From the NCBI GenBank assembly GCA_025726505.1, contig GCA_025726505.1_4340.1: a stretch of DNA of 42,918 nt; one strand, given 5' to 3'. The DNA comes from a phage. The translations under genes were made by a program, and so were the position numbers. A model generated the notes under the pieces. That model worked only from the letters and a program-made list of their open reading frames with translations, searched no databases and was not told the origin of the DNA. Positions 4,359-41,492 of the stretch are shown piece by piece. Position 1 is the first letter of the stretch. Each line of letters starts with the position of its first letter.

Positions 4359-4387
4359 ATAGTATCCTATTATGTTGGGGTGTGCAA
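4359..4387 (-). promoter_or_regulatory. Promoter-like element copy B (TTGCAC-N17-TACTAT)
   Basis: Minus strand TTGCAC (4387-4382), 17-nt spacer, TACTAT (4364-4359); leader TTATCGGAACGAGA..GAGG resembles the leader after copy A. Confidence 0.5.
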
Positions 4388-4634
4388 GAGAATAGTTACG
4401 TTGCCGTTGTGATTCTTCTGAGAAGGTTGTGCCTTTATTCTTATTACTTGGTAACTAAAGGGCAGGCCTTAAGCCTGCCCAATAATCGTTACATTTTTAC
4501 GGTTGCGAATCTACGGCACTTTAAGAAAATCAGATACTTAAGAGATATGCTGCCGATGAGAATAGAGCTTGCCCAGGGCAACCGGAGATACTAAGGAAGG
4601 AAAGTTACAATAATTCGAATGTTCAGTAAACTTT

Positions 4635-4678
4635 CGCTTAACACTTTGCTTGCGCTGCGCGCAGCTGCGTTTTAAGCG
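4635..4678. repeat. Nested inverted repeat in divergent control region
   Basis: CGCTTAA (4635-4641) pairs with TTAAGCG (4672-4678), enclosing perfect 12-bp palindrome GCTGCGCGCAGC (4654-4665). Confidence 0.6.
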
Positions 4679-4767
4679 GTTTTACAAGGTGAACAGGAAT
4701 CAAAGTAACTAAGATATAGAAGCACCTTAAACGAAGATTTTCATAATGTCAATAGGTGCGATTATGT

Positions 4768-4796
4768 TTGATTTCCCATTATTCTCAATGTATACT
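4768..4796 (+). promoter_or_regulatory. Sigma70-like early rightward promoter
   Basis: TTGATT (4768-4773), 17-nt spacer, TATACT (4791-4796), about 30 nt upstream of the first rightward ORF. Confidence 0.45.
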
Positions 4797-4828
4797 CTGT
4801 TTCGTTAACTGATGATGAGGGTTTGAGA

Positions 4829-4999
4829 ATGACACAGAATGAGGTAGCTGAGCGTATTGGGGTTACTCGCCGCACGCTTAATAACTGGTTAAAGAGTGGG
4901 AAGTTCCCGGATTGTTGTATCCGTATTATGGGTCGCCGGCAGCCTGGTACGTTCGACCCAGAGAAAGTGGAAGCGTGGATTAAGGAGAACGTTAAATGA
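4829..4999 (+). CDS. Small HTH DNA-binding protein (AlpA/excisionase-type fold)
   Basis: 56-aa ORF QNEVAERIGVTRRTLNNWLKSGKFP...FDPEKVEAWI; GAGG RBS; ATGA overlap with next gene; preferred over track ORF 4896-5084 in another frame. Confidence 0.55.
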   Translation: MTQNEVAERIGVTRRTLNNWLKSGKFPDCCIRIMGRRQPGTFDPEKVEAWIKENVK

Positions 5000-5229
5000 C
5001 CGAGTTCCAGTCACGAGTATTTACGGCGGTCGTTTCGTTAACCCGCAAAAAAGGGTCGTGCAGCGTTATGGACTTGCGCCGTAGTTATTTTAGGTACTAT
5101 AGTTCAGCCATTATTGAAGGGTCGTTGAAAGTGCTGGTTAAATCCGGTGTCGTGAAAAACGTTGGCGGGAAATATAGCGCCGTTGCAGAAGTTCGCGGAA
5201 TGACCGCTACTTTAGAAGACCTGGAATAA
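4996..5229 (+). CDS. Hypothetical protein with C-terminal EDLE tail
   Basis: 77-aa ORF coupled to upstream HTH gene; ends ...TATLEDLE. Confidence 0.6.
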   Translation: MTEFQSRVFTAVVSLTRKKGSCSVMDLRRSYFRYYSSAIIEGSLKVLVKSGVVKNVGGKYSAVAEVRGMTATLEDLE

Positions 5230-5288
5230 AAGAAAGCCCCGACGCGGTGAACGCCGAGGCCAAATTACTCGCTGAAGGAGCATACAAT

Positions 5289-7539: not shown

Positions 7540-7556
7540 AGGGGCGTTAAGCCCCT
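7540..7556. terminator. Hairpin between convergent primase and XRE genes
   Basis: AGGGGC (7540-7545), loop GTTAA, GCCCCT (7551-7556); overlaps the 3' end of the minus-strand XRE gene. Confidence 0.45.
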
Positions 7557-7762
7557 TCACCGAACGCCAGCCACTTGGCGTCTACTTGTAGCACTCCCGC
7601 CAGTTTAAACAGCGTCGCCGGGCGGACGTCCTGAGTTACACCGAGTGCTAGCTGGTTAATTGCGCCCTGGGAAACGCCAGCCATGACCGCCAGACGGCGC
7701 TGGGAGATGCCGAGTTCTTTACGGCGTTGTTCTACGCGAATGCCTAGTTCAGATGGTTGCAT
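7547..7762 (-). CDS. XRE-family (Cro/cI-type) HTH transcriptional regulator
   Basis: 71-aa product with canonical HTH LGISQRRLAVMAGVSQGAINQL; divergent from the rightward operon. Confidence 0.8.
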   Translation of the reverse strand: MQPSELGIRVEQRRKELGISQRRLAVMAGVSQGAINQLALGVTQDVRPATLFKLAGVLQVDAKWLAFGEGA

Positions 7763-10170: not shown

Positions 10171-10199
10171 TTGACACCTGAATAGTTAACTATTATAGT
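10171..10199 (+). promoter_or_regulatory. Sigma70-like promoter with perfect palindromic operator
   Basis: TTGACA (10171-10176), 17-nt spacer, TATAGT (10194-10199); spacer contains perfect 14-bp palindrome AATAGTTAACTATT (10181-10194). Confidence 0.6.
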
Positions 10200-25712: not shown

Positions 25713-25819
25713 TCTTTAGTCCTTTGGTTAAGAGGTTACTGGTTATGGTTAATGCGCCAGGCGGGAACCACCCGCTTTTCGTGTGCGACACTAGGCGCAA
25801 ACTTATTCTAGCACACTAC

Positions 25820-25848
25820 TTGCACACCCCAATATAATAGGGTACTAT
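25820..25848 (+). promoter_or_regulatory. Promoter-like element copy E (TTGCAC-N17-TACTAT)
   Basis: TTGCAC (25820-25825), spacer ACCCCAATATAATAGGG, TACTAT (25843-25848); 28 nt upstream of ATG 25877. Confidence 0.55.
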
Positions 25849-25876
25849 TCACATGTAACTTACTGAGGAAATAATT

Positions 25877-26203
25877 ATGCGTAAATTAGTACTAGCTCTG
25901 GGTTTTATGTCTTTTGCTACTTTTGGGTCTCCGTGCGAACAGGTATTTAGTGAATCTGTTCTTATGACTTCTGGTGTGCTCGAGAAAGCCGACCCTACTA
26001 TTGTAAAGGCGTTCAAGGACTCTACAGTTCGCGAGTGTGAGGCCGCCGTGGAGGTTGGTAAATCGGGCCTACCCCCGCAGGCCGTAACCTACACAGTGAT
26101 ACGTTCGGTAGAGAAAAACGGAGATGCTTTCTATAGCCTACTGACAGCCACCCGTCTGCAAATGGTAATGACAGGGTGGGCGATAGGCGCAGAAAGTAAA
26201 TAG
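25877..26203 (+). CDS. Small secreted/periplasmic protein (signal peptide)
   Basis: 108-aa product with N-terminus MRKLVLALGFMSFATFGSPC; two Cys; GAGGAA RBS. Confidence 0.6.
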   Translation: MRKLVLALGFMSFATFGSPCEQVFSESVLMTSGVLEKADPTIVKAFKDSTVRECEAAVEVGKSGLPPQAVTYTVIRSVEKNGDAFYSLLTATRLQMVMTGWAIGAESK

Positions 26204-26268
26204 TCGCCTTTATTTAAAGGAATGCACTGTGGTTAAATAGGACAAATCCTAAACACGAGGAAGTAAGC

Positions 26269-27399
26269 ATGGCCCAGAAGAAAATAACCGACGAACAGTT
26301 ACAGGAAGAATTGAACGCCGGGATGAAGATTATTGATATCGCCCGTAAATACGGCATCTCAGACCGCGTTATTCGTATCCGTAAAGCGAAGCTGGCTAAG
26401 AAAGGTGTAGGCCACGGGCGCGACGTTAGTCACCTTGTGCCGGACGGCTACAAGATTAAAGGCACGTCGTCCCTGGTGGACGAGTTCGGCAACACTAAGT
26501 TGCAATGGGTTAAGACTGACACCGATGCTGAACGTCAGGTCGAGTTGATGAAAGCCGTAATTGAAGGCATGAAGTCAGAGATTACACCTGTTGCGCCGGT
26601 TAAAGCCGTTCGCACCAAACGCGACGACAAGCTGCTCAACCTTTACACCGTGTCAGATTTCCATCTCGGTATGCTGGCATGGGCCGACGAGAGCGGCGAC
26701 GACTGGGATATGAAGATTGCGGAAGGCCTGTTCTCTCGATGGTTCGACGCGGCGTTTCAGAAAGCGCCGGACGCGGGAACAGGTGTTATTAACCTGCTAG
26801 GTGACCTTGCGCACTTCGATAGTCTGGTTGCCGTTACACCCGCAAGCGGTCACGCCCTTGACGCCGACACCCGTTATCAGAAACTTGTCCGTTACATGAT
26901 TCGTATGGTCCGCCGTGTCGTTGATATGGCGTTGGTTAAGCATAAAAATGTTCGCTTGCTTATCGTGCAAGGGAATCACGACGAATCGGGTATGATTTGG
27001 TTGGCTGAGATGTTCAGTACGCTGTACGACAATGAGCCGCGCGTGTTCGTCGATACGTCGCCGGATGTTTACAAGATGGTGCAACACGGCAAAACTACGC
27101 TGTTCTTCCATCACGGGCATAAAGCACGATTCGACGCTATCGAGCCTGTGATGATTGCCAAGTTCCGCAAAGCGTTCGGCGAGAGCGTCTATAGTTACGC
27201 ACATGTAGGACACCTTCACCACCAGAAGATTGTTGAAAGCCGTAATATGGTTGTCGAACAACATCGCACCCTGGCGGCTAAAGACGCCTACGCCTCCCGA
27301 GGCGGCTGGATGTCAGGTCGTAGTGCAAATGTAATTACTTATAGCGCCGAATACGGCGAGGTCGCACGTTTAACTATTTCACCGGAGATGCTGGGATGA
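26269..27399 (+). CDS. HTH-domain fused to calcineurin-like metallophosphoesterase
   Basis: N-terminal HTH (IIDIARKYGISDRVIRIRKAK) then phosphoesterase motifs SDFHLG, GDLAHFD, QGNHDE, FFHHGH, HVGHLHH; GAGGAAG RBS. Confidence 0.75.
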   Translation: MAQKKITDEQLQEELNAGMKIIDIARKYGISDRVIRIRKAKLAKKGVGHGRDVSHLVPDGYKIKGTSSLVDEFGNTKLQWVKTDTDAERQVELMKAVIEGMKSEITPVAPVKAVRTKRDDKLLNLYTVSDFHLGMLAWADESGDDWDMKIAEGLFSRWFDAAFQKAPDAGTGVINLLGDLAHFDSLVAVTPASGHALDADTRYQKLVRYMIRMVRRVVDMALVKHKNVRLLIVQGNHDESGMIWLAEMFSTLYDNEPRVFVDTSPDVYKMVQHGKTTLFFHHGHKARFDAIEPVMIAKFRKAFGESVYSYAHVGHLHHQKIVESRNMVVEQHRTLAAKDAYASRGGWMSGRSANVITYSAEYGEVARLTISPEMLG

Positions 27400-27629
27400 T
27401 TAAAGCCTTGTGGATTTTCGTCATAATGCCGATTGTTATTTTACTGGTTTTATCTATCGCGGTGATAGGCATGGCGACGGTCTTAACCTTTATCTCTATG
27501 GATTTGTCCGTGTTCTCTGGCCTGTACGAAGCTGTTACTGCGATAGCGCCGACCGCGATGCGTCTTTTATATGTAGGTGCTGTTGCTATTTCGGCAGTTA
27601 TCGTTCTGATTGATGAGAGCTATTTATGA
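27396..27629 (+). CDS. Small polytopic membrane protein
   Basis: 77-aa product, almost entirely hydrophobic; ATGA-coupled on both sides. Confidence 0.6.
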   Translation: MIKALWIFVIMPIVILLVLSIAVIGMATVLTFISMDLSVFSGLYEAVTAIAPTAMRLLYVGAVAISAVIVLIDESYL

Positions 27630-27856
27630 CTTCAAAATACGACCGAACTATGACAAACACCCACGGCAGTACAATGACTGTTGATGTCTACGATGTGCTC
27701 CGCGCTTTCGACATCCGCGACCCGGCGTTACAGCACGCATTGAAAAAGCTGTTGTGTATGGGGCTACGCGGACACAAAGACACAGGTACAGACTTAGACG
27801 AGGCAATAGAAAGTCTGGAGAAGTTACGGGAATACCGGAGTAATATTGATGAGTGA
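27626..27856 (+). CDS. Hypothetical protein
   Basis: 76-aa ORF, ATGA overlap with membrane protein gene. Confidence 0.5.
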   Translation: MTSKYDRTMTNTHGSTMTVDVYDVLRAFDIRDPALQHALKKLLCMGLRGHKDTGTDLDEAIESLEKLREYRSNIDE

Positions 27857-28025
27857 GACCGTAATGAAAACAATATACGTAATCCGTGTATATGACGAAG
27901 AATGGGATGAGTGGGTTGACATCTACGCCGTTGGGAGTAAGGAAGAAGCGTCAAAAGAAATGACGGAAAGAAGTGACCGAGGTCAGTTAACTAACTTCTA
28001 TGAAATGCCATTCAAAAGTGAATAA
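27849..28025 (+). CDS. Candidate 58-aa hypothetical protein
   Basis: ATG 27849 overlaps upstream stop; ends 6 nt before the bidirectional terminator. Confidence 0.35.
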   Translation: MSETVMKTIYVIRVYDEEWDEWVDIYAVGSKEEASKEMTERSDRGQLTNFYEMPFKSE

Positions 28026-28031
28026 GAAAAA

Positions 28032-28047
28032 GGCCCCGAGAGGGGCC
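28032..28047. terminator. Bidirectional terminator at strand switch
   Basis: GGCCCC-GAGA-GGGGCC, nearly identical to the 15934-15951 hairpin; between island end and tail tube stop (28054). Confidence 0.7.
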
Positions 28048-28053
28048 TTAGTT

Positions 28054-31003: not shown

Positions 31004-31516
31004 TTAGCCCCGGTACACGTTAAATGAGAAGCCATTGTTAAGACCACCACACAGTAACGGGCGTAAGGCATCGTCCGCGGCGGTAATTGCGGTCGTAGCG
31101 CCACTACTGCCGTTGTTGAAGTAGGTGACGGTTACTGTGCCCTCTACGCGCTCTGTCTGTACAGCGCGCCCATCTGAGTTAGCTCGTACCTCAGTACCCG
31201 TGCCATACGTAACGGCGGCGATTACCTGCGCAAGAATCACCTGCTTCGGGATGACATTGTTCTCTACAGGGAAGCCATTCAACGTTACGCCGGCGCGTGG
31301 GTAAGCGAGAGACTGTTCGGCGGATACGCGGCGGCCGCACATCTGCGGTTCTGCAAGCCCGACATAAGTAGCACCGTTGCGCAAGGCTACTTCCGCAGCG
31401 GTATCGTCTTCTGGCAGCTCAAGGCCATAATTAGCCGCTAACGCGCGGGCGTCCGCTAGTGAGATGTACGAATCAGCATTCGGGATGATTGCCCCCGTTT
31501 CCACGATTAGCGGCAT
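31004..31516 (-). CDS. Head-tail connector/adaptor protein (gp6-like N-terminus)
   Basis: 170-aa product; N-terminal ISLADARALAANYGLELPEDDTAAEVAL resembles head-tail connector proteins. Confidence 0.5.
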   Translation of the reverse strand: MPLIVETGAIIPNADSYISLADARALAANYGLELPEDDTAAEVALRNGATYVGLAEPQMCGRRVSAEQSLAYPRAGVTLNGFPVENNVIPKQVILAQVIAAVTYGTGTEVRANSDGRAVQTERVEGTVTVTYFNNGSSGATTAITAADDALRPLLCGGLNNGFSFNVYRG

Positions 31517-32389: not shown

Positions 32390-32448
32390 AATTTACCTCT
32401 TAGTAAATGAAAAGAGGGACCGAAGTCCCTCCCGATTATAGCTTAACC

Positions 32449-34202: not shown

Positions 34203-34284
34203 AGTCAGTATGTCCCCTGGACGTTGGAACCCGGGCCACCCGGATTTACATGTCAAGAATAAATTATTCCAACATGCAAGGCAA

Positions 34285-34548
34285 CTATTCCAGAATATTC
34301 CTCACGTAATCCTGCAACATGAATACTTTCAGTCTCAGTTGCCGTACGCATTCGGCGTTCTGAACGTCGATAGCTAAATCCTCGTCAGCGTCGCTACTTG
34401 GCGCCGCCAGCTTGCACGGCGGCTGCATCGTCATCGTATCCGGGGATGGAATTGGCGTTTGTGACGGCACGGGACTTGAGCAGGACGCGAGCATCGTCGA
34501 AAGTGCACACGCTGCGGTCAGGCGTTTTAATGTACTTAACGACTTCAC
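34285..34548 (-). CDS. o-spanin (Rz1-like outer-membrane lipoprotein)
   Basis: Signal peptide with lipobox LASC, Pro-rich mature region (SSPVPSQTPIPSPD...QPPC); overlaps the i-spanin gene out of frame. Confidence 0.55.
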   Translation of the reverse strand: MKSLSTLKRLTAACALSTMLASCSSPVPSQTPIPSPDTMTMQPPCKLAAPSSDADEDLAIDVQNAECVRQLRLKVFMLQDYVRNILE

Positions 34549-34780: not shown

Positions 34781-34804
34781 GTTTCTCCTTTCTCGATAAG
34801 TAAA

Positions 34805-34824
34805 GCCCCGCCATAAAGCGGGGC
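34805..34824 (-). other. GC-rich hairpin upstream of spanin genes
   Basis: GCCCCGC-CATAAA-GCGGGGC, 25 nt upstream of the i-spanin start on the minus strand. Confidence 0.45.
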
Positions 34825-35031
34825 GCTAGTCCTTATCATTTAAACATAAAAACGGCGTAATCTCAGTAAACCAGCTACTTTTTACACAAGCAATAGAGTA
34901 TGGCCCTTCCGAACGCGTCAGCGTAACTACACTCAGGACTTACGTCCCGCTCCGTTACCTGCCCGCGCCGCGGTCGCTTGTTCATACTTCACAAGCTCAG
35001 GTGGAGCTTAGCACATTTTCAGTGAAAAGTC

Positions 35032-35047
35032 AACTATTCGAATAGTT
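35032..35047. promoter_or_regulatory. Perfect 16-bp palindrome AACTATTCGAATAGTT
   Basis: Self-complementary; abuts a minus-strand TTGACT -35-like hexamer; related half-site array at 34262-34299. Confidence 0.55.
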
Positions 35048-35099
35048 TATTCCAACATTTACAATTGAGCGGAATAACTGGAATACGTAGACAAATAGT

Positions 35100-35128
35100 T
35101 TGCAGACACCAATATAATAGGGTACTAT
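35100..35128 (+). promoter_or_regulatory. Promoter-like element copy F (TTGCAG-N17-TACTAT)
   Basis: TTGCAG (35100-35105), spacer ACACCAATATAATAGGG, TACTAT (35123-35128); 27 nt upstream of ATG 35156. Confidence 0.55.
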
Positions 35129-35155
35129 TCAGTTAACTTAAACAGGAGATGAAAA

Positions 35156-35971
35156 ATGAAACATGTAATCAGTTTTTCAGGCGGCAGAACATCAGCGTAC
35201 ACAACCCTTGAAGTGCTTAAACTTCACCCGGATGCTGAGGTTATTTATATGGATACCGGGGCGGAGCACCCAAAGACCTACGAGTTCATCCGTAATTTTG
35301 CTAAGCACTTTAATATTACGGTGACGTGCCTGCGGGTTGTTCCTAACCCAGAAATGCGTAAGGCCAGTACCTATGAAGTCCTTAGCGTAGATGAAATAGG
35401 TCCTGACCTGGAGCCGTGGCGCAGAATGCTGCGCAAGTACGGTCACCCATACGTCGGCGGCGCGTTCTGCACAGACCGGATGAAGACGGTGCCGTTCACC
35501 AAATACTGCGACGAGAAATACGGCAAAGGAAATTATGAGCGCTGGTTGGGAATTCGCTGTGACGAGCCAAAACGACTTGGCAACCGTGGACCGGGATTCC
35601 ATTACCTTGCAGACATTAGCGACTTCGAAAAGCAAGACATACTCGAGTGGTGGTCGCAACAATCATTCGACCTTGGCATTGAAGAACACTTAGGTAACTG
35701 CGTATTTTGCATCAAGAAGAGTTTACAGAAGGTTGCACTAGCGGCGAAAGACGAGCCACAACTCGCAGCGGAGTTCTGGCAGATGATTCAGGACGAAGAT
35801 AAAAAGGACGACAAGGTAATGTACCGTTCGAACCGGAGCCTTGGCGAGGTCATCGCTTTGTTTGGCAGTGAAGACCGCGCAGAACTTGCGGTCCGTATGC
35901 GCTCAATGCGGCAGTACGACACAGGGTCATGTAGTGAAAGTTGTGAGGCATTTTCTTCCGAAGAATACTAA
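35156..35971 (+). CDS. PAPS reductase-family PP-loop enzyme
   Basis: N-terminal PP-loop HVISFSGGRTSAY; C-terminal Cys motifs GNCVFC and GSCSESC; single opposite-strand gene inside the head module. Confidence 0.75.
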   Translation: MKHVISFSGGRTSAYTTLEVLKLHPDAEVIYMDTGAEHPKTYEFIRNFAKHFNITVTCLRVVPNPEMRKASTYEVLSVDEIGPDLEPWRRMLRKYGHPYVGGAFCTDRMKTVPFTKYCDEKYGKGNYERWLGIRCDEPKRLGNRGPGFHYLADISDFEKQDILEWWSQQSFDLGIEEHLGNCVFCIKKSLQKVALAAKDEPQLAAEFWQMIQDEDKKDDKVMYRSNRSLGEVIALFGSEDRAELAVRMRSMRQYDTGSCSESCEAFSSEEY

Positions 35972-35994
35972 ACTTCGTTAAAGAAATAAAACTA

Positions 35995-36013
35995 AGGCCC
36001 CATAACGGGGCCT
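35995..36013. terminator. Bidirectional terminator after the PAPS-reductase-like gene
   Basis: AGGCCCC-ATAAC-GGGGCCT followed by TTTTATCATT. Confidence 0.7.
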
Positions 36014-36017
36014 TTTA

Positions 36018-41052: not shown

Positions 41053-41235
41053 TCATTTGAAAAACCACAACAGGATGCCTGCCACTCCTGATACACCCAT
41101 GCCTAAAAACATAGGCCACCACAGATGGCGAGGAAGACTGTTAAACAAAGTCGGTTGTTTTATCAGCACAACGAGAAAGGCCAGCCAAAACACCAGGTCG
41201 CCCGCGGCATCAAGTGCCTTCAAAAACTCAATCAT
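41053..41235 (-). CDS. Small membrane protein
   Basis: 60-aa product with two hydrophobic segments. Confidence 0.5.
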   Translation of the reverse strand: MIEFLKALDAAGDLVFWLAFLVVLIKQPTLFNSLPRHLWWPMFLGMGVSGVAGILLWFFK

Positions 41236-41492
41236 TCCCCACTCTCCTCTTTTGCAATGCGTTGTTCAGTTTTAGTGATACCCCGGCGCGTGAATAACAC
41301 CGGGCTTGTCTTAACGTGCGTCATCAGACGGTTGTTATAAATTACGTGGCGCTCGCAATCAAGGTCTTTGCTGTACTTCGCAATCGTCATTTCGTTGATG
41401 CCGGTTTGTCGACATGTCTCGGCCATCGTGCCGTATTCTTTAATCAGGTTCGGAATGCTGGTAATCATCCTAAGAAATTCCTCGTTGTCCAC
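41232..41492 (-). CDS. Small HTH-containing protein (possible regulator)
   Basis: 86-aa product with HTH-like MAETCRQTGINEMTIAKYSKD. Confidence 0.45.
   Translation of the reverse strand: MDNEEFLRMITSIPNLIKEYGTMAETCRQTGINEMTIAKYSKDLDCERHVIYNNRLMTHVKTSPVLFTRRGITKTEQRIAKEESGE

Follow-up and report, generated by a model that had tools for sequence, protein, structure and literature searches.

The 375-bp intergenic gap at positions 34781–35155 of phage DNA GCA_025726505.1_4340.1 (42,918 nt; this whole stretch is called the window) is a compact divergent transcription-control region composed of two separable modules. The larger is a conserved core (35085→34781, minus strand), most of which, ∼220 of the 375 positions, corresponds to a folded leader RNA, itself conserved, that precedes the lysis and capsid genes. 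The other module consists of 35086–35155, a cargo gene, and a terminator, and its variable part is the cargo. The sequence anatomy of the gap, its conservation, covariation, strand specificity, single copy, and modularity were observed directly. Every sequence feature listed for this gap by a first-pass annotation is present where it was placed; the leader was overlooked, and what had been called a "GC hairpin" is the terminator-like 3′ stem of that RNA.

The Stretch before the Lysis and Capsid Genes Is Conserved and Predicted to Fold as a Leader RNA

On the minus strand, the gap is preceded by the terminase, portal, head-morphogenesis, and Hoc-like genes, which are followed by a bidirectional terminator (35994–36014). 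A plus-strand PAPS-reductase-like gene (35156–35971) occupies the space between this terminator and the gap. Beyond the gap, the minus strand continues with i-spanin (34780→34394), o-spanin, scaffold, major capsid, and the remaining virion genes. DNA comparison showed the gap to be identical (100%) to that of Kagunavirus LM02P1, and ∼300 phage records, from Escherichia Kagunavirus and Salmonella Jersey-type phages, matched the 800 bp around it at 80–97% identity in a DNA search. We retrieved 48 related loci (L numbers below) from IMG/VR via the spanin protein and aligned their upstream regions. The relatives split by leader sequence into type A and type B, the latter being SE2-type.

The leader is the most conserved part of this neighborhood. 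Its pairwise diversity is 0.032, compared with 0.061 and 0.171 at the second and third codon positions of the spanin gene. In the minus sense, the whole leader has a predicted minimum free energy (MFE) of −70.5 kcal/mol (z = −2.3); the 5′ domain folds at −38.3 kcal/mol (z = −3.5), and its MFE structure makes up 44% of the ensemble.

Base pairs in the leader are kept by compensatory substitutions beyond the level of the controls, as is characteristic of a structured, functional RNA. Within type A alone, five pairs carry compensatory changes and 98.6% of the cells are paired; none of 500 shuffles reached this level, and slid controls gave 0–2 pairs. When types A and B were combined, 25 of 63 pairs were compensatory (2–7 in slid controls), with 96.5% of cells paired versus 36%–43% when slid. 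The combined alignment was fitted to a covariance model, to which SE2-type leaders align at 60–66 bits. The changes are spread over the helices (numbered as in Table 1). A C-G pair of P2 is U-A in 11 sequences, and a U-A pair of P3 is G-C in L026. P4 changes from GA/UC to UG/CA in L004 and L026 and is fully replaced in type B, while P7 records three independent compensatory events. P8 reads GAUAAG/CUUAUC in type A versus UAUACG/CGUAUA in type B, and P9 reads GUUUCU/AGAAAC versus GUAU/AUAC. Type B leaders, folded as transcribed, retain the layout of P1 followed by P2–P4 despite their different sequence. G-U pairs, and pairs that alternate between G-U and Watson-Crick, are numerous; they work on the minus-sense strand only, which argues for RNA rather than double-stranded DNA as the conserved form.

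A covariance model search found one copy of the leader per genome, and BLAST within the window found no paralogue. The whole window was searched against Rfam 15 without a match at gathering scores, and relaxing the limit to E values of up to 10 gave chance-level matches only. A tRNA and tmRNA search of the window found none, and BLAST against 5,426 complete E. coli genomes returned nothing similar to the element. Three-anchor pattern scans of IMG/VR and metagenomes recovered Kaguna/Jersey phages and obvious chance matches only, with no leader types beyond the two described here; a looser two-anchor DNA pattern was swamped by chance matches in IMG/VR.

Anatomy of the Leader and Its Predicted Promoter

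Table 1. Features of the Gap and Its Surroundings, in Window Positions (RBS, ribosome-binding site; SD, Shine-Dalgarno sequence)
Feature	Position	Strand	Details
Structured 5′ leader RNA, ∼218 nt	34781–34998	−	Conservation, fold, covariation
P1 hairpin	34976–34996	−	GCUUGU/ACAAGC; 2 nt from predicted 5′ end; in 5′-domain MFE
P2-P3-P4 irregular hairpin, 65 nt	34909–34973	−	Compensatory changes
P5 variable hairpin	34855–34887	−	GUGUAA..AGUAG/UUACU..UUACGC; one-sided wobble changes only
3′ extended hairpin	34781–34853	−	−27 kcal/mol, z = −4.3
P6 alternative local hairpin	34853→46 with 34836→29	−	Competes with P8 and P9
P7 terminator-like tip stem	34824→34805	−	Tail UUUACUUAUC; terminator scan
P8	34838→32 with 34800→34794	−	UGAUAAG with CUUAUCG; flanks P7
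P9	34853→48 with 34786→81	−	GUUUUU (GUUUCU in most relatives) with AGAAAC; 3′ arm is the SD-AUG spacer
Leftward promoter P_L (predicted)	35005–35033	−	−35 TTGACT 35033→35028, 17-bp spacer, TGC 35013→35011, −10 TAAGCT 35010→35005
Palindrome, perfect, 16 bp	35032–35047		Halves AACTATTC and GAATAGTT; overlaps P_L −35; centered −41.5 from predicted start
Proximal inverted repeat GGAATA-AAC-TATTC	35040–35058	−	−55 to −42; inside 19-bp repeat GAATAGTTTATTCCAACAT (plus strand)
Distal box TATTCC-AGT-TATTCC	35071–35085	−	−87 to −73 from predicted P_L start
Related cluster upstream of scaffold gene	34257–34301	−	GGAATA ×3, including GGAATA-ATT-TATTC beside TTGACA
Promoter F (predicted) and RBS	35100–35148	+	−35 TTGCAG 35100–05, 17-bp spacer, −10 TACTAT 35123–28; TATAAT in spacer 35113–18; SD AGGAG 35144–48; predicted start ∼35135
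Promoter F operator-like inverted repeat		+	AATAG (35116–20)-GGTA-CTATT (35125–29), overlapping −10
Cargo gene, PAPS-reductase-like, 271 aa	35156–35971	+	Pfam PF01507, 1.8e-8; phrog_33262, 9e-102
Bidirectional intrinsic terminator	35994–36014	both	Terminator scan match on both strands

The predicted leader begins with P1 (Table 1), whose position in type B is taken by a different hairpin, (U)ACGCU/AGCGU(A). RNAalifold, run on a plain MAFFT alignment, instead paired the 5′ end of the leader with the region after the stem over a long range. We prefer the local P1 because it belongs to the dominant predicted 5′-domain fold in both types. A helix of the whole-leader MFE structure, AGUAUG/CAUACU, was rejected; its 3′ arm varies without compensation. 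The P2-P3-P4 hairpin is followed by conserved single-stranded UUCGGAAGGGCC (34913→34902), which is one of three conserved unpaired stretches, the others being UAUUGCUU and AGAUU(A)CGCCGU. P5 is probably dispensable, since its changes are one-sided, it is shortened in L026, and it is not recognizable in type B.

The 3′ part of the leader is an extended hairpin with P7 at its tip. P7 has an 8-bp stem with seven G-C pairs, is predicted to fold alone at −17.9 kcal/mol (z = −4.4), and lies 20 nt before the spanin RBS. This is the hairpin reported by the first-pass annotation at 34805–34824. The terminator scan detects it, and the minus strand reads GCCCCGC-TTTATG-GCGGGGC followed by TTTACTTATC. The tail, UUUACUUAUC, passes the 5-of-8 rule of the scanner but has only three contiguous U residues; type B has UUAGCGUAU there. 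Termination at P7 would leave an RNA of ∼200 nt ending near 34797. P6 competes with P8 and P9, so that the alternative folds take in the neighborhood of the RBS.

Directly upstream of the leader lies P_L, TTGACT-N17(..TGC)-TAAGCT, which has the geometry of an extended −10 promoter. Its start is predicted at G34998 ± 2 on the minus strand. The consensus scanner missed P_L because it requires a −10 match of at least 4 of 6. The type B counterpart is TAGACT-N17-(TGT)-TACGCT, with an entirely different spacer. In a phylogenetic footprint over ∼45 relatives, both hexamers and the TG are retained, the spacer drifts, and the "n" of TGn may be C, A, G, or T. Retention of the hexamers and TG in two divergent lineages, with variable spacer and "n," is the pattern expected of a real extended −10 promoter. 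The first-pass annotation had described the TTGACT hexamer as abutting the palindrome; the hexamer is there, and 2 bp of it lie within the palindrome. Just downstream of the −10 comes a repeat of its hexamer, seen as TAAGCT-5 nt-TGAGCT in type A (34994–35010, minus strand) and TACGCT-3 nt-TACGCT in type B (L039, ∼2295–2312), and this repeat is also part of hairpin P1. In lambda-type late promoters, a −10-like repeat at that place causes sigma-dependent pausing.

Half-Site Arrays around the Predicted Leftward Promoter

The repeat units reported by the first-pass annotation are both present, TTATTCCAACAT at 35047–35058 with an exact second copy at 34264–34275, and GGAATAACTGGAATA at 35071–35085. 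As an exact 12-mer repeat, TTATTCCAACAT is weakly significant by itself. Three or more TATTCC/GGAATA hexamers within 40 bp occur in two clusters in the window (34265 and 35048) and in none of 300 randomizations; the cluster noted earlier at 34262–34299, upstream of the scaffold gene, is real. The core GGAATA-N3-TATTC has seven matches against 0.6 expected; two are perfect, and the others carry one mismatch or lie on the opposite strand. One such site, at 31512–26, was set aside as merely an RBS and ATG.

The distal box is nearly invariant in both leader types. AGT stands at its center in almost all relatives, and a few have GGT, GAT, or AAT instead; in four relatives, the box is a variant that the search pattern did not catch. 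It forms the upstream edge of the conserved core, which runs leftward from 35085 to 34781 on the minus strand. The 19-bp repeat GAATAGTTTATTCCAACAT (family D4), which contains the proximal inverted repeat, has a second copy at 34257–34275 with 17/19 positions identical, and GGAATA-N3-TATTC is kept at both sites in types A and B. The TATTC(C)/GGAATA boxes are kept in both types, and the 16-bp palindrome is missing from type B.

The perfect palindrome, AACTATTCGAATAGTT, is the sole 16-bp palindrome in the window, and its half-sites match the AATAG/CTATT operator of a promoter family described below. By itself it is within chance, with 0.67 perfect 16-bp palindromes per randomized genome and at least one in 49% of them. 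Most type A relatives keep it; several have single-base variants, and L026 has two. It is absent from type B phages, which retain the promoter and leader. We rejected the idea that its half-sites change together with the early-promoter operator in type B, since SE2 keeps AATAG-N4-CTATT without the palindrome. The palindrome is therefore a type A addition.

The first two boxes of the scaffold-upstream cluster lie within the last o-spanin codons. The TTGACA beside the cluster was considered as a second late promoter and set aside; no usable −10 follows and type B has TTGATT, which makes promoter function there doubtful.

The TATTC(C) half-site array probably binds a phage protein. At a distance of a few hundred bases upstream of the terminase genes, the window encodes an 86-aa protein (41232–41492, minus strand) whose Pfam match to NinH is weak and falls short of the curated cut-off (E = 1.2e-5). 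NinH is a DNA-binding protein similar to Fis, and the NinH-like protein is a second candidate reader of the AT-rich half-site arrays. Separately, CCAGAATATTCCTC at 34290–34303 matches the published RcsAB box TaAGaatatTCcta at 11 of 14 positions, and six of six TATTCC hexamers resemble the RcsB half of that box. We treat this resemblance as a lead only; the 34290–34303 copy sits in the last o-spanin codons and may be a coincidence.

Three further observations concern the genes downstream of the gap. In L002 (PQ423993.1), an HNH homing-endonuclease gene (2330–2836) is inserted between both spanin reading frames. A minus-strand hairpin, CCGGG-UGG-CCCGG (34230–34242), lies between o-spanin and the scaffold start; its stem is kept in all relatives and the middle base of the loop is variable. 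A role in scaffold expression, as an RNA operator or a processing site, is possible for this hairpin. A strong intrinsic terminator (32412–32433, minus strand) directly follows the major capsid gene within the late operon, which implies that the downstream virion genes rely on read-through or further promoters.

Possible Roles of the Leader

Promoter activity, the start site, termination, and the regulatory outcome are what we infer from these features. On balance, we favor the leader as a cis-acting control of the spanin-scaffold-major capsid operon, working through attenuation, stability, or translation control. Past the terminator of the terminase-to-Hoc operon, P_L would restart transcription as an extended −10 sigma70 promoter. 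The 5′-terminal hairpin P1 could act as a stabilizer that protects the mRNA end. P7, with its weak U-tail, would serve as a partial terminator or attenuator at which some polymerases stop, yielding the ∼200-nt RNA. In read-through transcripts, P7 would become the tip of a longer hairpin, the foot of which is paired with the SD-AUG spacer, and P8/P9 would fit either an RNase III site or a means of controlling how ribosomes gain access. In this way, the leader could set the amount, and probably the timing, of spanin, scaffold, and major capsid expression.

Several points weigh against this scheme. The P_L −10 hexamer, TAAGCT, is weak (3 of 6). The U-tract after P7 is poor (UUUACUUAU; UUAGCGUAU in type B), so termination is perhaps slight. 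The covariation comes mostly from two lineages and a few variants, which means few independent events, and the combined alignment is model-fitted. The sole Kagunavirus transcriptome paper gives gene-level data, and neither it nor two genome papers contain start-site or intergenic data.

A bolder proposal, which we regard as possible but doubtful, is that the leader represents a new class of phage regulatory RNA, limited to Kaguna/Jersey-type phages, that actively gates the late genes. It might do so as an antiterminator that binds polymerase, or through alternative pairings around the terminator stem (P6 versus P8/P9 as a sensor) that switch the operon on via a phage or host factor.

The short terminated transcript of ∼200 nt from P_L might instead act in trans, as a small RNA on host or phage mRNAs or proteins. 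A promoter and a terminator-like stem do bracket a conserved, structured, non-coding ∼200 nt that is better conserved than the flanking genes, and the conserved unpaired UUCGGAAGGGCC, UAUUGCUU, and AGAUUACGCCGU could serve as seeds. There is precedent in the StxS RNA, a product of early termination of the Shiga-toxin phage late transcript. We nevertheless consider a trans role unlikely. No long complementarity was found, BLAST against the 5,426 E. coli genomes being empty, and the short, interrupted U-tail is unlike that of Hfq-type small RNAs. Moreover, the sequence between the stem and the spanin AUG forms covarying pairs with earlier parts of the leader (P8 and P9), which fits action in cis.

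It is improbable that the leader is an antitermination RNA like the put RNAs of HK022, with a 5′ domain that binds RNA polymerase and promotes read-through of the leader stem and of later terminators in the ∼19-kb late operon. P1 and then P2–P4 (0–2 nt apart) do follow the promoter directly, with the terminator-like stem next. Strong minus-strand terminators lie downstream (32433→32412, after the capsid gene; 28049→28030; 25162→25141), and the annotation of the relative Bas70 lists no antiterminator protein of the Q or N kind. However, the leader covariance model finds nothing in the HK022 genome (E ≤ 10), there is no Rfam match, and P2–P4 form a single long hairpin rather than the put shape. 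Partial read-through of terminators is also common in phage late operons that have no special device.

We give very little credence to the idea that the gap acts at the DNA level only, as a protein-bound late-promoter region or an iteron origin whose conserved 190 bp are DNA sites. The dense TATTC/GAATA and AATAG/CTATT half-sites (35025–35130), the absence of comparable clusters from the randomizations, and the position of the palindrome relative to P_L suit this idea. Yet the half-sites fill only ∼100 bp; the other ∼220 bp show strand-specific compensatory pairing that includes G-U pairs, and the palindrome is absent in type B phages. An origin with iteron-like repeats, which the first-pass annotation had raised, did not hold up. 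The repeat finder detected 5- to 6-bp half-sites only, not regularly spaced direct repeats of 17–22 bp, and the gap has no AT-rich unwinding block. Cumulative GC skew turns at ∼4.5–5 kb and ∼16 kb only, with no turn near 35 kb, although GC skew is weak evidence for an origin because phage skew also tracks transcription direction. The skew minimum, ∼4400–5250, falls in a divergent region between a promoter at 4374(−) and the helicase-primase gene at 5247(+), and this is a better place than the gap to seek a replication origin. The companion suggestion of a late-promoter control region stands insofar as two promoters of the sigma70 type point away from each other here, with conserved half-site arrays between and upstream of them; promoter F is not a late control element.

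That the gap encodes a 36-aa protein (34985→34875, minus strand) can be practically dismissed, in agreement with the first-pass view that the gap holds no credible reading frame. This sole open reading frame is intact in most type A genomes and annotated as hypothetical in Bas70 and some other GenBank relatives. However, only 9 aa of it are left in L010, L018, and L024, the ATG has gone in L026 and L027, L004 has a frameshift, and all type B genomes lack the frame. No clear RBS lies upstream of it, and the observed changes preserve RNA pairing, not codons.

An Exchangeable Cassette Reads Rightward

The second module faces away from the leader. DNA similarity to the ∼300 relatives ends exactly at the start codon of the cargo gene, and among relatives the slot is occupied by at least 10 unrelated genes or is empty. 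Its contents elsewhere include an N6/N4 DNA methyltransferase, a 173-aa phrog_3007 protein, an endonuclease-VII-like protein, and several small proteins of no assigned function. The slot is empty in nine type A relatives and in all SE2-type relatives. In cargo-less phages, the Hoc-gene terminator directly adjoins TATTCC-AGT-TATTCC and the sequence upstream of the box is wholly replaced, which identifies promoter F, the RBS, the cargo, and the bidirectional terminator as an optional cassette. Two units end at this terminator: the terminase-to-Hoc-like operon of the minus strand and, on the plus strand, the cargo gene. With its own promoter and terminator, and with presence, absence, and content that vary among close relatives, the unit has the attributes of a moron. 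The stretch exchanged by recombination would be the cargo, from its start codon as far as the bidirectional terminator that follows.

Promoter F, the "promoter copy F" of the first-pass annotation (35113–35132), belongs to a multi-copy family. A window search with the promoter-like 20-mer gave five matches against 0 expected, and the six copies are F, 3196(−), 4374(−), 7809(−), 10197(−), and 25833(+). Their alignment reads cTTGCAc-N17-TACTAT, with sigma70 geometry and TATAAT inside the spacer. The family shares an inverted repeat, AATAG-N4-CTATT, whose 4-nt spacer differs between copies. Perfect repeats number seven (3180, 4358, 7838, 10181, 13835, 25836, and 35116), and allowing one mismatch gives 14 against 0.9 expected. 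Copy 7809(−) precedes the gene for a 71-aa HTH_3 (XRE-type) protein (7547–7762; Pfam), and this protein probably reads the operator.

Kagunavirus genome papers report a PHIRE motif, tgAATAGTa-ccTATTat-T, in seven copies and assign it to a phage RNA polymerase (PMC9825357). That motif is the reverse complement of promoter F and its paralogues. In the relative Bas70, none of the annotated genes is for an RNA polymerase. As a correction to the published assignment, we find that the motif reads better as a sigma70 promoter of the host type (TTGCAc-N17-TACTAT) whose operator is an inverted repeat.

Other parts of these genomes bear on the family and the cassette. The promoter copy at 10178–10197 (minus strand) contains a perfect 14-bp palindrome, AATAGTTAACTATT; it is directed antisense at a site flanked by the exonuclease and SSB genes, no reading frame is obvious downstream, and it may drive an antisense or regulatory transcript. 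A second reverse-strand island, 25713–28049, lies within the tail operon and is built like the cargo cassette at 35100–36014. It carries plus-strand genes (25877–28025), including a metallophosphatase-type "DNA repair exonuclease," together with promoter copy 25833(+) and a bidirectional terminator (28030–28049). In Salmonella phage SE2 (L259, 20651–21301), another reverse-strand gene, an amidase, lies between the portal and head-morphogenesis genes, so the head operon of these phages offers more than a single slot for insertions.

Discussion

Kaguna- and Jersey-type phages are widely isolated with a view to therapy against E. coli and Salmonella and to biocontrol of these hosts. A specific predicted promoter and a conserved RNA element can now be placed before their capsid and lysis genes, at a position where GenBank records are blank or carry the spurious 36-aa protein. 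The cassette, in turn, offers a natural socket (fixed promoter and RBS, exchangeable gene, and terminator) for accessory genes such as methyltransferases, useful both for reading the content of the phage-host arms race and as an insertion site for engineering.

The closest architectural parallel is the lambda late unit, PR′-6S RNA-tR′, in which a promoter for host polymerase, a non-coding RNA of ∼200 nt, and a hairpin stand just before lysis and head genes. The gap has this layout, with promoter, short RNA, and terminator-like stem directly upstream of the late genes. As in PR′, a −10-like hexamer follows just after the −10 (TAAGCT-5-TGAGCT; TACGCT-3-TACGCT in type B), at the place of the lambda pause signal. 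The likeness has limits. No Q-like gene is annotated in the relative, and the terminator tail is weak here; Q-family antiterminators were absent from the 83 annotated Bas70 products and from 10 Pfam-scanned proteins of the window, whose small reading frames were partly scanned. The lambda 6S RNA has no known need for internal structure, whereas the leader here is conserved and covarying, and the genes downstream are spanins, scaffold, and capsid rather than the holin and endolysin of lambda.

The put RNAs of HK022 are also folded RNAs that come right after a promoter and upstream of terminators, in a phage with no obvious antiterminator protein for the operon concerned. The model search of HK022 gave no sequence or structure match to the leader, and shape and length differ. 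Two further likenesses are functional analogies, not homologies. P1, a hairpin within ∼2 nt of the predicted 5′ end, resembles the stabilizer of the E. coli ompA 5′ untranslated region. The long imperfect hairpin before the RBS, a possible RNase III substrate by analogy, recalls the RNase III-processed leaders of lambda N and of T7 mRNAs.

The rightward unit, opposed to the head operon that surrounds it, resembles the morons that carry their own promoter and terminator within late operons, and like them it is present, absent, or swapped among close relatives. Unlike in morons, the promoter and RBS here form a fixed socket, shared with the early/middle promoter family of the phage, and the coding part alone is exchanged. 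The overall build, with promoter, leader, hairpin, late genes, and an adjoining moron cassette, is thus of a familiar kind, and the RNA element itself is a previously undescribed one in a well-sampled group of phages.

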